Origin: Pseudomonadota bacterium
GTDB taxonomy: Bacteria; Myxococcota_A; Polyangia; Fen-1088
Direction: 5' to 3'
Assembly: GCA_023438785.1 (NCBI GenBank)
Contig: JAEXQJ010000259.1
Span: forward strand, 4,816-68,815
Length of the DNA: 64,000 bases
The notes below the pieces were generated by a model, which was not told the origin of the DNA, made no database searches, and saw nothing but the letters and a program-made list of their open reading frames with translations. Below, one piece after another: positions 23,172 to 27,926 of the stretch (the first letter of the stretch is position 1; each line of letters begins with the position of its first letter). Position numbers and translations under genes: made by a program.

Positions 23172-23903
23172 ATGCCAACGGTTCCCCACACCGAGGAGCG
23201 TCTTTCGTCCCCGGCGCCCCACGCCGAGAAGCACTTCACCGCCAGCGAGGCCGTGCGCGACGTGGTCATCGGCATGTCCGACGGTCTGACCGTACCGTTC
23301 GCCTTGGCCGCTGGTCTGTCGGGCGCCGCCGCCGCCAATCAAATCGTCATCACGGCGGGCTTGGCTGAACTGGCGGCCGGCGCCATCGCCATGGGGCTGG
23401 GCGGTTACTTGGCCGCGCGCTCAGACCGCGAGCACTTCGAAACCGAACTGGCTCGTGAGCGCGCCGAAACCGAGGCCATTCCCGCCAAGGAGCGCGAGGA
23501 GGTGGCGCAAATCCTGATCGAGTACGGCGTCCCCCACGACAAGGTCCCCGTCATCGTGGACGCCATCAGCGCGGACCGCGATCGTTGGATCGAGTTCATG
23601 ATGCGCTTCGAGCTGGGACTGGAGCGACCGGATCCCCGTCGAGCCCTGCGCAGCGCCCTGACCATCGGTCTATCATACGTGTTCGGAGGGCTCATTCCCT
23701 TGGCACCCTACATGCTCACGGAAACGGTCAGCACGGGACTGGGCATCTCGGCGGGCTTCACCGCGGCGGCGCTGCTGGTGTTTGGCATCGTGAAGGGGCG
23801 CATGACGGGCAGCACGCATCCGCTGCGCAACGGTCTACAGACTCTGGCCATCGGCGGCCTGGCGGCGAGCGCGGCCTTCATCATCGCGCGCCTCATCGGC
23901 TGA
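23172..23903 (+). CDS. VIT1/CCC1-family iron/manganese transporter
   Basis: Internal ATG at 23172 (MPTVPHTEE). VIGMSDGLTVPFALAAGLSGA and a C-terminal TM bundle are present. Confidence 0.8.
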   Translation: MPTVPHTEERLSSPAPHAEKHFTASEAVRDVVIGMSDGLTVPFALAAGLSGAAAANQIVITAGLAELAAGAIAMGLGGYLAARSDREHFETELARERAETEAIPAKEREEVAQILIEYGVPHDKVPVIVDAISADRDRWIEFMMRFELGLERPDPRRALRSALTIGLSYVFGGLIPLAPYMLTETVSTGLGISAGFTAAALLVFGIVKGRMTGSTHPLRNGLQTLAIGGLAASAAFIIARLIG

Positions 23904-23905
23904 CC

Positions 23906-24982
23906 ATGAAGCGACCCGCGGTTCTCGGTGTCATTCACCTCCTCGTCGATGCGGCCTGCGTGACCGCGGTCCTGCGCGGCTCGCACGCCCAGGGCGCGGG
24001 GGGACTGGACGCCTTCCGCATGGTGGTGGGCTACGACCTGTGCGCCTTCGCTCTGCAGTTTCCACTGGGGGTGCTCGTGGATCGGCTGCGCGCGACCCGG
24101 GGAGCGGCGGTGCTGGGCGTGTTGCTGGCCGCGCTGGTCGTGTCGCCGCTGCATCTGCCCGGAGCACTGATTATGCTGGCGGCGGGCGTAGGCAACGCCC
24201 TTTATCACTTGGGCGCGGGCGGGGAGGTGTTGCAGGGCTCGGCGGGACGAGCCGCGCCGGCCGGCGTCTTCGTGGCCCCGGGCGCGCTTGGCCTCGGCCT
24301 GGGGATGTGGATGGGGCGCACCGGGATTGGCCCCGTGTGGCCCTTCTACACGGGTTTGGCCCTGGCCTTCGTCGTGTTGCTTACGCTCTCGCGTCCCATC
24401 TCCGTCGAGATTCGCCCCGAAGCCCGCGTGCGTTTGGGCGTGGCCAGTCTGGTGGGACTGGGCGTGATGCTGTTGCTCCTGCTGTCGGTCACCGTGCGTT
24501 CCTTCGTGGGCCTGAGCGGCTGTCAGGGCTGCCCGCGTGAGCTGCTGGTGACGCTGGGACTTCCCCTAGTTGGTTGCCTGGGCAAGCTGGTGGGCGGCTT
24601 CGTGGCCGACCGCGTGGGTTGGATTCTGACCAGCGTGGTCGCGCTGCTGGTGTCCACGCCGCTCCTGGCCTTGGCCGAGGGGAGTCCCGCGCTCGCCTTG
24701 CCTGGGCTTCTGCTCTTTCAGATGACCATGCCGGTCACGCTCACCGCCGTGTACCTCATGCTGCCGCGCCATCCCGCCACCGCCTTCGGGCTGCCCTGCG
24801 TGGCGCTCGTCGCGGGCGCCCTGCTCACCTTCCATCCGCAGACCGCGGGCATGTTCGGACCCCGCACCTTCTTCGCACTCATCCCGCTGTCCGCCGTGGC
24901 CGTGCTGGTGGCCCTGCGGCGGCTGCAGCATTCAGTCGGCTCGACGACGGCGAAGCCGGCGCAACACGAACAGCGGGCTTGA
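23906..24982 (+). CDS. Polytopic membrane protein (about 10-12 TM), possibly MFS-like
   Basis: Internal ATG at 23906, 2 nt after the VIT stop. Two DR-x-G-like loops (VDRLRATRG and FVADRVGW) suggest two-fold MFS symmetry. Confidence 0.55.
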   Translation: MKRPAVLGVIHLLVDAACVTAVLRGSHAQGAGGLDAFRMVVGYDLCAFALQFPLGVLVDRLRATRGAAVLGVLLAALVVSPLHLPGALIMLAAGVGNALYHLGAGGEVLQGSAGRAAPAGVFVAPGALGLGLGMWMGRTGIGPVWPFYTGLALAFVVLLTLSRPISVEIRPEARVRLGVASLVGLGVMLLLLLSVTVRSFVGLSGCQGCPRELLVTLGLPLVGCLGKLVGGFVADRVGWILTSVVALLVSTPLLALAEGSPALALPGLLLFQMTMPVTLTAVYLMLPRHPATAFGLPCVALVAGALLTFHPQTAGMFGPRTFFALIPLSAVAVLVALRRLQHSVGSTTAKPAQHEQRA

Positions 24983-24984
24983 TT

Positions 24985-25311
24985 TCACGGCACGCCGAAT
25001 AGATGACGGGACAGCATGCCCAACCCGAAGCTGGCCGCGTTGGCGGCCAGTGAGCCCACGAGGGCCCAGCCCCTGCCGAACACGAAGCGGAAGTAGGCGG
25101 CCTCGGCCAGCCAGGCGAAGAGCTCCGCCGCCACGACCTTGCCCCAGTACCCGCCTGGCACCGCGGGGTGGAAGAACACGAACCACACCAGGGGATGGGT
25201 GATGGCGCTGGCCCCGAACGCGGCCCACACGGAGGCCCGCAGCACGCGCCGGTAGACCGGGATCTCGATGAGCTGGGTGAAGACGAAGGCGGTCAGCCAG
25301 GGGCGAAGCAC
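24985..25311 (-). CDS. Small (108 aa) integral membrane protein, unknown function
   Basis: GTG start. GC3 is about 94%, a strong coding signal. Three hydrophobic helices. It lies 10 nt downstream of the MYXO-CTERM gene pair on the same strand. Confidence 0.55.
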   Translation of the reverse strand: MLRPWLTAFVFTQLIEIPVYRRVLRASVWAAFGASAITHPLVWFVFFHPAVPGGYWGKVVAAELFAWLAEAAYFRFVFGRGWALVGSLAANAASFGLGMLSRHLFGVP

Positions 25312-25320
25312 GGGGCGGAA

Positions 25321-25725
25321 CTACTTGCCACGACGGCGTCGGATGAGCATCACGGCCGCGCCAAAGAGGCCAGCCAACAACCACGGTCCCAGGCTGCGTG
25401 CCGCGCTTCCACCCACGCTGCAGCCGCTATCATCATCTTTCGTGTCCGTCGTGGTCGTTCCCGTTCCCGTTACCGTTCCCGTGGCCGTTGGCTGGGCGAT
25501 GCAGACGAGGCAGTCGTACGGCACGCTGGGGGGCATGGGCGAGGCGTCCTGGTCCCAGTTGGTGTAGTCGCGGCGATAACACGTCTCGACCACGCAGGTG
25601 CCGCCGGTGCAGGGATCACCCGCCTTGCGCGACTGGCATTCCGAGGTGTCAGGCGGCGCCACGTCGGCCCACGCCGCGCTGGCGACCAGGACGAGGCATG
25701 CGCCCAGTGCGACCGGGGCCTTCAT
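25321..25725 (-). CDS. Small secreted Cys-rich protein with MYXO-CTERM sorting signal (paralog B)
   Basis: ATG at 25725 with GGGGAGG upstream. Signal peptide MKAPVALGACLVLVASAAWA, a 6-Cys domain, T/G linker, then DDDSGCSVGGSAARSLGPWLLAGLFGAAVMLIRRRRGK. Confidence 0.75.
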   Translation of the reverse strand: MKAPVALGACLVLVASAAWADVAPPDTSECQSRKAGDPCTGGTCVVETCYRRDYTNWDQDASPMPPSVPYDCLVCIAQPTATGTVTGTGTTTTDTKDDDSGCSVGGSAARSLGPWLLAGLFGAAVMLIRRRRGK

Positions 25726-25727
25726 GT

Positions 25728-26315
25728 CTACTTGCCTCCCCGACGACGGAGCAGCGTGACGGCGGCGCCGAAGAGGCCAGCCAACAACCACGGTCCCAGG
25801 CTGCGCGCCGCGTTTCCACCCACGCTGCAGCCGCTGTCGTCCTTTCCGGTGTCCGTTCCCGTGCCCGTCGCGGTCGCAGTGGCCGCGAGGCCGCTGCTCG
25901 TGGCGGTGCCCACGTCGGTGACACTGCTGCTGGCGGAGGTCGCCGAGGTGGTTTCGGTGGCCGAGGCCACGGGGCTGGTGTTTGTGGCGACAGAGGTGGC
26001 GGAGGTGGCGGTCTCCGTGCCCGTGGCCGTGACAATCGTGCCGCTGCCCGTATCGGTGGCCGTGCTGGTGCTCACGACGGCGGTGGTTGAGCACTTGACG
26101 CAGTCGTATGCCACGCTGGGCGGGCCGGCCGAGGCGTCTCGGTCCCAGTTGGCGTAGTCGGCGCGGCTGCATGTACTGGCCACGCAAACCCCGCCCGTGC
26201 ACGCGTCTCCGACCTGCCGATTCTGGCATTCGGCCACCTCTGGCGGAATGACGTCCGCGTGGGCCCGCCCCGCCGCTGAAAGGAGAACCAAGACCATCAA
26301 ACCGGTGCGCTTCAT
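25728..26315 (-). CDS. Small secreted Cys-rich protein with MYXO-CTERM sorting signal (paralog A)
   Basis: ATG at 26315 with GGAGGG upstream. Signal MKRTGLMVLVLLSAAGRAHA, the same 6-Cys domain (ECQNRQVGDACTGGVCVASTCSRADYANWDRDAS...YDCVKC), an S/T linker and a GCSVGG...RRRGGK tail. Confidence 0.8.
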   Translation of the reverse strand: MKRTGLMVLVLLSAAGRAHADVIPPEVAECQNRQVGDACTGGVCVASTCSRADYANWDRDASAGPPSVAYDCVKCSTTAVVSTSTATDTGSGTIVTATGTETATSATSVATNTSPVASATETTSATSASSSVTDVGTATSSGLAATATATGTGTDTGKDDSGCSVGGNAARSLGPWLLAGLFGAAVTLLRRRGGK

Positions 26316-26399: not shown

Positions 26400-27926
26400 C
26401 TACGGGGTCATTTGCCAGGCCGGCAGGACCGTGCTTCCCAGCAGGCTGCGGCCGTTGCTGGCGATGACCTGCTTGTAGAAGTGGTACGAGTCCTTAGGGA
26501 TGCGCTTCTGGCTGGGGTAGTCCACGTACACGAGGCCAAAGCGCTCGCGGAAGCCGTCGGCCCACTCGAAATTATCGAGCAGCGACCAGGCGTAGTAGCC
26601 GCGCACAGGCACGCCGTCCTTGATGGCGCGGGCCAGCTCCAGCAGCACGCGGTGCAGGTAGTCCACCCGCTGCGCATCGTGCACCTTGCCGTCGAGGAAG
26701 ACGTGATCGCGGCTGGAGACGCCGTTCTCCGTGATGGCGATGGGCAGCTTGTACTTGTCGTACATGAAGCGCGGGGCCCAGTACACGGCGTCTGGCGCCA
26801 GAAGGTGCCAAAGGGTCGCGCCGCGCGGGTATCCCGCCGGGAAGGGAACCCTTTCAGGCTTGCCGTCCGCGCCCTGGCGCCAGTTTTCGCTGCCGTAGAT
26901 GTTGAGGCCAAGGAAATCGACGGGCTGTTTCATCAGGTCGAGGTCCGACGACTTGAAGGCCGGCACGTCCTTGCCGTACAGGGCGAGCCCATCCTCGGGA
27001 TAGCGGCCGAGCAGCACCGGATCCATCCACCAGGCGTTCATCCAGGGAGTGCGCACCGTCACCGCGTGCAGACCCCAGCGGGCGGCCTCCACGTCCTCGG
27101 GCTTGGGGCTGGCCGGGCGCGTGGTGCTGCAGGCCACGCAGTATCCCACCTGCGCGTCCTTCACGTGCGCGCGCAGGGCCTGCACCGACTTGCCATGGGC
27201 CAGGAACGCATGGTGCGCGGCGGTCAGGTATTCGCCGAAGGTCTTCTTCAGACCGGGGGCCATGCTGCCACTCAGATAGCCGTTGCCGATGAACGCCTGG
27301 GGTTCGTTCTGCGTGACCCAGAGCTTGACGCGATCGCCGTAGCGCTTGGCCAGGACCGTCGTGTATTCGGCGAACCAGTCGGCCATGTCACGGTTGAGCC
27401 AGCCGCCCCGCGCCTCCAGGGCCTGGGGCGTGTCCCAGTGATACACGGTGCACATGGGCGTGATGCCCGCCCGGTGCAACTCGTCCAGCAGGCGGTCGTA
27501 GAAATCCAAGCCCTTGGCATTGACCGCGCCCACGCCCGCGGGCAGCACGCGTGGCCAGGAGATGCTGAAGCGATAGTTCTTGAGGCGTAGGCCTCTCATG
27601 AGGGCCGCGTCGTCGCGAAAGCGATGGTAGTGGTCGCACGCCACCTCGCCCGTGTTGCCCTCCCACACGGCGCCCGGCTTCTTGCTGAACACGTCCCACA
27701 CCGAGGGACCGCGCCCATCCTCCGCGGCGGCGCCCTCGACTTGGTAGGCTGCGGTCGCCGCGCCCCACTGGAAATCGTTGGGAAAGGGGCCCGGATGCGT
27801 GGCCGGGCGGGGCTTCTTGTCGGCAGCCGCGGCCCTGCGGCTCAAGCCGAACTGGCCCAGGGCGAGGCTGGCGGCACCGAGGAAGCCCCGGCGGGACAGC
27901 GAAGGATCGGAGGAGCGCTGGCTCAT
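26400..27926 (-). CDS. GH1 beta-glucosidase with Tat signal peptide
   Basis: ORF trimmed to ATG at 27926 (MSQRSSDPSLSRRGFLGAASLALG twin-arginine motif) with AGGAGA upstream. GH1 motifs are YRFSISWPRV, LWVTQNEP (acid/base Glu) and ITENG (nucleophile Glu). Confidence 0.9.
   Translation of the reverse strand: MSQRSSDPSLSRRGFLGAASLALGQFGLSRRAAAADKKPRPATHPGPFPNDFQWGAATAAYQVEGAAAEDGRGPSVWDVFSKKPGAVWEGNTGEVACDHYHRFRDDAALMRGLRLKNYRFSISWPRVLPAGVGAVNAKGLDFYDRLLDELHRAGITPMCTVYHWDTPQALEARGGWLNRDMADWFAEYTTVLAKRYGDRVKLWVTQNEPQAFIGNGYLSGSMAPGLKKTFGEYLTAAHHAFLAHGKSVQALRAHVKDAQVGYCVACSTTRPASPKPEDVEAARWGLHAVTVRTPWMNAWWMDPVLLGRYPEDGLALYGKDVPAFKSSDLDLMKQPVDFLGLNIYGSENWRQGADGKPERVPFPAGYPRGATLWHLLAPDAVYWAPRFMYDKYKLPIAITENGVSSRDHVFLDGKVHDAQRVDYLHRVLLELARAIKDGVPVRGYYAWSLLDNFEWADGFRERFGLVYVDYPSQKRIPKDSYHFYKQVIASNGRSLLGSTVLPAWQMTP

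Follow-up and report, generated by a model that had tools for sequence, protein, structure and literature searches.

The 64,000-nucleotide (nt) window analyzed here (GenBank assembly GCA_023438785.1, contig JAEXQJ010000259.1), which belongs to a 104-kb metagenomic scaffold of a Myxococcota organism (ENA ERZ28600165, LEMO22-1 scaffold_25), carries two adjacent genes for small, signal-peptide-bearing proteins with a MYXO-CTERM-type C-terminal tail (genes A and B), followed by a gene for a 108-amino-acid (aa) membrane protein. This finding is real and larger than first described; it represents a lineage-specific membrane module tied to a known class of sorting signal, i.e., a Myxococcota envelope module of three families that are absent from Pfam and NCBIfam or score below their thresholds. 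That these genes make up a conserved cell envelope gene module is very probable. The functional role considered below is a proposal drawn from the sequences.

Genes A (positions 25728-26315, 195 aa) and B (25321-25725, 134 aa) and the 108-aa gene (24985-25311, GTG start) all lie on the minus strand, in agreement with the preliminary description of two adjacent paralogs plus a 108-aa membrane open reading frame (ORF), and they form a tight operon that ends with the 108-aa gene. Gene A begins with an ATG just preceded by GGAGGG and is separated by 2 nt from gene B, whose ribosome-binding site lies inside the last codons of A; a further 9 nt separate B from the 108-aa gene. This spacing supports the reality of the A-B-108 module.

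One genome per species was scanned, and of the 130 loci detected, 80 were kept, almost all of them from Myxococcota. Carriers of the 108-aa gene include Polyangium, Sorangium, Chondromyces apiculatus, Labilithrix luteola, Enhygromyxa salina, and Archangium. When adjacency was counted as a small same-strand ORF bearing a tail or the Cys domain at most 1.7 kb upstream or 0.9 kb downstream, 51 of 81 nonredundant 108-aa loci adjoined such an ORF, against about 7 expected from the background rate of these calls in the rest of the flanks. The reverse test relied on 32 metagenome loci retrieved with the DY-x-[NH]-W-[DN]-[RK]-DA motif and 2 added by protein look-up; the metagenome scan used a 28-residue motif alignment, as the full alignment was too divergent. 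Among the 26 loci testable downstream, 15 carry the 108-aa gene, mostly 3 to 20 nt after the tail protein, and 11 do not. Gaps of 2 to 23 nt occur in many loci, and two homologs were seen in the same trio, where the 108-aa gene is accompanied by genes for a small, tail-anchored protein rich in Cys and for an approximately 360-aa membrane protein. Rather than being absent or unlinked in related genomes, the 108-aa ORF is thus linked to the small proteins, as the preliminary description had supposed. This linkage is strong but not obligatory, and the Cys-tail family has stand-alone copies. All-against-all clustering of the flanks revealed no other conserved neighbor, generic kinases only.

The 108-aa protein has at least 273 homologs, almost all of 104 to 116 aa and all publicly named "hypothetical protein." Relatives among the loci and protein matches examined are mostly 41 to 76% identical to the window protein. 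T12, E16, P18, S35, T38, H39, P40, W43, E70, N91, and S94 are invariant, at identities reaching down to about 41%, in all 81 nonredundant loci (81/81) and E63 is found in 80/81, with W5, F9, Y20, and A34 likewise invariant or nearly so; 21 positions are invariant among 49 homologs. The protein had been taken for a three-helix membrane protein with about 94% GC at third codon positions, but the AlphaFold2 model (predicted local distance difference test [pLDDT] score of 96.3) has four helices (residues 2-24, 28-46, 55-78, and 83-105), and the measured GC value is 92.7%. On each helix, conserved positions are spaced 3 to 4 residues apart and thereby mark a single conserved face, and these faces bear all of the polar invariants. 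This arrangement suggests a buried polar network; sequence conservation and the model together indicate a compact four-helix inner-membrane bundle built around it, with both termini predicted to face the periplasm by the positive-inside rule.

Database searches placed this bundle in no described family. The 108-aa protein had no Pfam or NCBIfam match at an E value of ≤1 (two homologs had none at ≤5), its family profile matched no PDB sequence, and no profile match linked it to small families with four transmembrane helices (SMR/EmrE, GtrA, and the lycopene cyclase domain). A kinship with CPBP/Rce1/myxosortase proteins (PF02517 and the Mrt models) was rejected for want of profile or motif support, and fold comparison lent it no support. 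The CPBP motifs are missing from the protein, which has no EE pair, no FxxxH, and no HxxxN; its polar residues are instead a single E16, H39 within ASAxTHP, E63, E70, and N91 within ANxxS. Internal duplication of helices 1-2 as helices 3-4 was also discarded (hhalign E = 0.16, not significant).

Alignment and scores against TIGR03901, the NCBIfam MYXO-CTERM model, bear out the earlier claim that A and B are paralogous, signal-peptide-bearing proteins of the MYXO-CTERM type. The two share 61% of their residues across the signal peptide plus 6-Cys domain (E = 3e-28) and 88% across the final 33 residues (E = 3e-18). TIGR03901 scores B at 24.3 bits, which passes the cutoff of 20, and A at 19.5 bits, marginally under it. 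In both proteins, residues 1-20 constitute a signal peptide, recognized by sequence features (a K/R-containing n-region, a hydrophobic core, and AxA followed by D), and residues 21-75 constitute the 6-Cys domain (nt 26091-26255 in A and 25501-25665 in B). A linker comes next, long and T/S/A-rich in A and short and T/G-rich in B, and leads to the C-terminal part (residues 160-195, nt 25731-25838 in A; residues 99-134, nt 25324-25431 in B). This tail is tripartite in both, with a Cys motif, a transmembrane helix, and an Arg cluster, reading DSGCSVGG...GPWLLAGLFGAAV...RRRRGK in B and ending in RRRGGK in A. The AlphaFold2 model of B reaches pLDDT values of 94 to 96 over residues ~31-70; in it, residues 42-52 and 67-77 pair as a long beta hairpin, and residues 113-132 form the terminal helix. 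A and B are therefore likely to be exported MYXO-CTERM-type clients. A lipoprotein signal considered in B (LGAC, residues 7-10) was dismissed, as it precedes the hydrophobic core and is conserved neither in A nor in the family.

Gene A is a real MYXO-CTERM-type gene that is absent from public annotation. It was recovered by hidden Markov models of the Cys domain (E = 5e-28) and the tail (E = 6e-10). Its exact sequence is not in a collection of 15 billion proteins, and the public gene calls place an antisense 133-aa ORF there (25756-26157, plus strand). The 3' ends of A and B make up a direct repeat of 129 nt (84% identity), in the core of which 62 of 64 bases are identical. This similarity had been taken as consistent with recent duplication or gene conversion. 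Neither event is indicated. Of the residues that both proteins have in common, 35 in the domain and 29 in the tail, 25 and 21, respectively, are specified by the same codon, and gene conversion was rejected because these proportions (71% versus 72%) reveal no 3' excess of synonymous identity. The higher nucleotide identity at the 3' end thus reflects higher amino acid conservation in the tail rather than a synonymous excess, and stronger purifying selection on the tail would be enough to explain it.

The six cysteines of A and B share the spacing C-x8-C-x4-C-x4-C-x22-C-x2-C. The motif first proposed for the domain is present in both proteins, except that the spacer after DAS has 7 residues and not 5 or 6. 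When the 58-residue domain was turned into a two-sequence profile and compared with 1.84 billion representative proteins, it retrieved 148 clusters (counted at 50% identity) at E ≤ 1e-3, 61 of them at E ≤ 1e-10; the 6-Cys domain therefore defines a real family. Nearly all members are 110 to 270 aa long and carry the domain immediately after the signal peptide. Among 77 aligned members, A20, D21 (the residue following the predicted AxA cleavage site), and all six Cys are invariant, and conservation reaches at least 90% for P24 and the tail Cys; the small family proteins are 29 to 49% identical to B. No Pfam, NCBIfam, or PDB match to the domain was found. As originally suspected, it stands outside known families, since profile and fold searches gave no curated family and no solved fold. 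Defensins (CS-alpha-beta), knottins, EGF/disintegrin domains, and DUF4215/TraA-type repeats were considered and set aside, with no pattern, profile, or fold match to any of them.

Among the 77 tails of this family, TIGR03901 recognizes 26 at E ≤ 0.01, and the JDVT-CTERM model matches 3 members. Because so few match TIGR03901, the tails appear to be a divergent subtype of MYXO-CTERM. In about half of them the helix begins with the motif (G/A)-P-W-L-L-A, and this feature may, along with the poor recognition by the model, define the subtype.

The small proteins next to the 108-aa gene range from seven Cys residues down to none, while the invariants of the 108-aa protein stay the same at every one of these loci. 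Six domain Cys plus the tail Cys are found in this window and many other loci, and four domain Cys plus the tail Cys in Polyangium and Chondromyces. A Gly/Ala/Pro-rich linker alone, with the tail Cys as the only cysteine, occurs at loci L080, L086, L088, and L062 (Enhygromyxa). The tail Cys is absent at L020 and L084, and the protein of Sorangium locus L078 (48 mature residues) has no Cys at all. What is kept throughout is the signal peptide, a mature N terminus of the form AxA/D-[VIL]-x-P (cleavage at the slash), and, at the C terminus, a hydrophobic helix with an Arg cluster behind it. The shortest members, with 40 to 48 mature residues (L078:4558-4917, from Sorangium sp. So ce1335, and L058:5594-5830), start with DVIPP... 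or DVIQP..., continue into the helix, and end in RRRR. These miniatures show that the Cys domain is dispensable and that, in L078, the tail Cys is too. The 6-Cys domain is thus not the conserved core of the module, given that relatives adjoining the 108-aa gene have four domain Cys, the tail Cys only, or none. Judging from these sequences, the constant partner of the 108-aa protein would be a small exported tail-anchored protein, to which the 6-Cys domain is added in some cases as a cargo or insert. The combination of variable Cys content with fixed 108-aa residues suggests that the 108-aa protein interacts with the shared tail helix or N terminus. Several loci (the window, L021, L049, L050, and L086) have small-protein paralogs in tandem or on the flanks, and tandem paralogs beside one membrane gene are a pattern familiar from sortase-substrate clusters.

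The earlier reading of the module as A, B, and the 108-aa protein was incomplete in that it missed a third recurrent component, T1, encoded on the plus strand (23906-24982). This gene specifies a 358-aa putative, divergent transporter of the major facilitator superfamily (MFS) with about 12 transmembrane segments and converges on the 108-aa gene, the two stop codons lying 2 nt apart on opposite strands. The T1 window protein is a 100% match to a catalogued protein (P0269) and has no Pfam or NCBIfam match above threshold. Many of its homologs at 45 to 57% identity carry PF07690, and the JGI name is "FSR fosmidomycin-resistance-like MFS." T1 is placed with the Fsr-like MFS proteins through the Pfam matches of its homologs, and it carries motif-A-like GxxxDRxGW sequences; about 12 hydrophobic segments and the motifs LVDRLR and GGFVADRVGW can be seen in its sequence. 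It differs from them in being divergent and itself without a Pfam match, and a tie to small tail-anchored proteins is not a described trait of the Fsr-like family.

T1 accompanies the 108-aa gene in 16 of 81 loci; at L008 both are on the same strand and the 108-aa gene overlaps the T1 stop. In another 32 of 81 loci (e.g., L078:4937-5938, L029:4979-5995, and L039:4941-5954, besides 29 others), the gene for an approximately 340-aa polytopic membrane protein that we call T2 comes immediately before the 108-aa gene and adjoins or overlaps it. T1 or T2 therefore abuts or overlaps the 108-aa gene in 48 of 81 loci, whereas neither occurs within 6 kb at the remaining 33; in Polyangium, a small protein and then the 108-aa gene make up the whole arrangement. 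The invariant residues of T2 include H70, D74, R76, H157, N158, Q240, H243, Y244, W247, H312, and E316, which suggest that it may be a metal-dependent membrane enzyme. All 28 members scanned lacked a Pfam, NCBIfam, or PDB relative. A likeness to Brp/Blh-like oxygenases was an impression from His-containing motifs and was dropped, as no Pfam, NCBIfam, or PDB match backed it. Distant homology between T1 and T2 was also rejected, as hhalign finds nothing.

More distant T1 homologs can occur without the 108-aa gene. A 519-aa protein (P0164) combines, in one ORF, a T1-type MFS protein and a full-length Cys-tail protein with signal peptide, 6-Cys domain, and tail. Whether a fusion of genes or an overlooked stop codon lies behind it, P0164 is independent evidence of a link between the MFS and Cys-tail families. 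At L122 (2568-4264 and downstream), the MFS and Cys-tail genes are present and the 108-aa gene is missing; past the tail gene, the sequence seemed to be of another kind with no relation to the module, as might result from a rearrangement or insertion. L124 (1292-3238) encodes a 648-aa protein with PA14 and DUF4215 domains, a pair that apparently resembles that of the kin-recognition receptor TraA; a T1-like MFS gene that stands alone follows shortly downstream.

MrtX was shown in 2025 to be the MYXO-CTERM sorting protease, and the step that modifies the tail Cys is still unassigned (Guo, Haft and Wall; PMC11980579). A and B resemble MYXO-CTERM/MrtX clients in their Cys motif/helix/Arg tail, signal peptide, disordered linker, and Myxococcota lineage. 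Known clients are scattered in the genome and depend on one housekeeping CPBP protease (PMC11980579), whereas A and B share their operon with the dedicated 108-aa membrane protein, which is not of the CPBP type, and some of their relatives lack the Cys that MrtX cleavage requires. The JDVT-CTERM/MrtJ system (Haft 2023; bioRxiv 10.1101/2023.06.07.544157) likewise places a tripartite-tailed client directly beside a conserved polytopic protein with intramembrane polar residues. MrtJ is a CPBP/Rce1-type enzyme of normal size, unlike the 108-aa protein, which has no CPBP motifs or Pfam match, and a further difference is that the adjacent small proteins here share an N-terminal motif besides the tail. 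Gram-positive sortase-pilin clusters bring together several paralogous substrates with a common C-terminal sorting signal and one dedicated membrane protein alongside. The A/B paralogs, with their common C-terminal signal beside one membrane protein, are arranged in the same way, but there is no homology and the cell envelope is different.

We propose that A and B would be exported by Sec, that the 6-Cys domain would fold with three disulfides, and that the tail helix would hold each protein in the inner membrane with the Arg cluster in the cytoplasm. The 108-aa protein would then engage this helix within the bilayer as a dedicated partner, and its buried Glu/His/Glu/Glu/Asn network would perform a chemical or ion-coupled step. 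Candidates for this step are the processing or modification of the anchor and the coupling of the small protein to the neighboring transporter. That the 108-aa protein is dedicated to the tail anchor, as its partner or enzyme within the membrane, is suggested by conservation and the structural model and is a reading that we hold only tentatively. Several observations weigh against it. About 40% of Cys-domain genes have no 108-aa gene nearby, and 30 of 81 108-aa loci have no recognizable small protein. The 108-aa protein has no CPBP motifs, and its invariants persist beside small proteins without a tail Cys (L078, L020, and L084). The frequent tight juxtaposition with T1 or T2 fits a subunit role for the 108-aa protein in these partners equally well. 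Furthermore, MrtX alone suffices for MYXO-CTERM cleavage in E. coli (PMC11980579), so that no extra factor is needed for canonical tails. The persistence of its invariants where the tail Cys has been lost rules out that the 108-aa protein is a lipid transferase directed strictly at Cys or a protease needing a lipidated Cys. It is also unlikely to be the missing general MYXO-CTERM lipid transferase, since it occurs in a subset of Myxococcota only, its conservation is independent of the tail Cys, and MrtX alone is sufficient for cleavage.

The main rival to a dedicated partner of the tail anchor makes the 108-aa protein a small obligatory subunit of the neighboring polytopic protein (the MFS transporter here and T2 elsewhere), with the small tail-anchored protein as a periplasm-facing third subunit. 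In such a complex, which we consider possible but doubtful, the polar core would bind an ion or substrate and the small protein would capture or gate the ligand rather than serve as a processing substrate. The overlap with the T1 stop in L008 and the abutting or overlapping T2 in 32 loci fit a subunit, as do the invariant His, Asp, and Glu of T2, suggestive of a metal site, and the E/H/E/E/N set of the 108-aa protein, which is also a typical set of ion ligands. The dispensable tail Cys, the union of MFS and Cys-tail proteins in P0164, and the position of the window MFS gene 2 nt after a VIT1 Fe/Mn transporter gene point the same way. However, T1 and T2 are nonhomologous, and one conserved subunit for two unrelated partners would be unusual; moreover, neither lies within 6 kb at 33 of 81 loci, such as those of Polyangium, and distant T1 homologs occur without the 108-aa gene. 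Less probable, and in our view unlikely, is that the 108-aa protein is a minimal non-CPBP intramembrane hydrolase, a dedicated "mini-sortase" that would cut the tail anchor near the start of the helix. Such an enzyme would have its analogs in the MrtJ/JDVT-CTERM pairs, without sequence kinship to the CPBP proteases. The gene neighborhood logic behind this idea is the same that identified MrtJ (bioRxiv 10.1101/2023.06.07.544157). The invariant acidic, His, and Asn residues inside the helices are consistent with it, and so is the divergent tail subtype, mostly unrecognized by the MYXO-CTERM model. Pattern searches found no ORF with CPBP motifs (EExx[FWY]RG, FxxxH, and HxxxN/D) in any fetched locus, nor one in the 64-kb window. 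The order E (helix 1), H (helix 2), and N (helix 4) may parallel the catalytic residues of Rce1 on TM4, TM5, and TM7. Nevertheless, no similarity of the 108-aa protein to a protease family was found in sequence or fold, the adjacent small proteins have no cleavage motif common to all, and 108 aa would be below the size of any known intramembrane protease. If this reading is true, and the protein processes or modifies the C-terminal anchor, Myxococcota would have a new, non-CPBP class of sorting enzymes, smaller than all others of this type.

Two further explanations fare worse against the same evidence. That the genes are mere neighbors without shared function is very unlikely and is largely refuted by the neighborhood statistics. 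Although each family occurs without the others in some loci, adjacency is about 7 times the background rate, gaps are just 2 to 23 nt in many loci, and the arrangement is kept in Polyangium, Chondromyces, Enhygromyxa, Sorangium, Archangium, and many metagenome-assembled genomes whose flanks differ. It is more improbable still that A and B are secreted or surface Cys-rich toxins or bacteriocin-like peptides, with the 108-aa protein conferring immunity and the MFS protein acting as exporter. Tandem, diverged small Cys-rich proteins beside a small multihelix membrane protein and a transporter would suit such a system, and we infer that MYXO-CTERM lipoprotein-like cargo could pass between cells by outer-membrane exchange. 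Yet the 108-aa protein is far more conserved (mostly 41 to 76% identity) than the small proteins (29 to 49% to B), which contradicts the codiversification of toxin and immunity, and domain-less proteins made of a linker and tail take the same position at L080, L086, L088, and L078. The domain also has neither the Cys pattern of CS-alpha-beta defensins nor a fold match.

For the handling of MYXO-CTERM-type tails, the 108-aa protein offers a concrete candidate that could act in an accessory or an alternative step. As neither the 108-aa family nor the 6-Cys family has a Pfam or NCBIfam model, the present work defines families that annotation pipelines call "hypothetical" or miss. The module is present in cultured strains (Polyangium, Chondromyces, Labilithrix, Enhygromyxa, and Sorangium) and is therefore genetically testable.

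The wider neighborhood in the window includes the gene for the VIT1/CCC1-type Fe/Mn transporter (23172-23903, plus strand), which ends 2 nt before the MFS gene and is probably cotranscribed with it in this genome. Fen metagenome-assembled genome loci L003 to L007 have a B12-binding radical SAM gene at the VIT1 position, so the VIT1-MFS pairing is not conserved. Riboswitches and other RNA elements were sought as clues to a ligand, and none was found. On the other side of the module lies a gene for a GH1 beta-glucosidase (26400-27926, minus strand), with 84 nt between its end and gene A. It encodes a twin-arginine-like signal, SRRGFLGAASLALG, and does not adjoin the module elsewhere.

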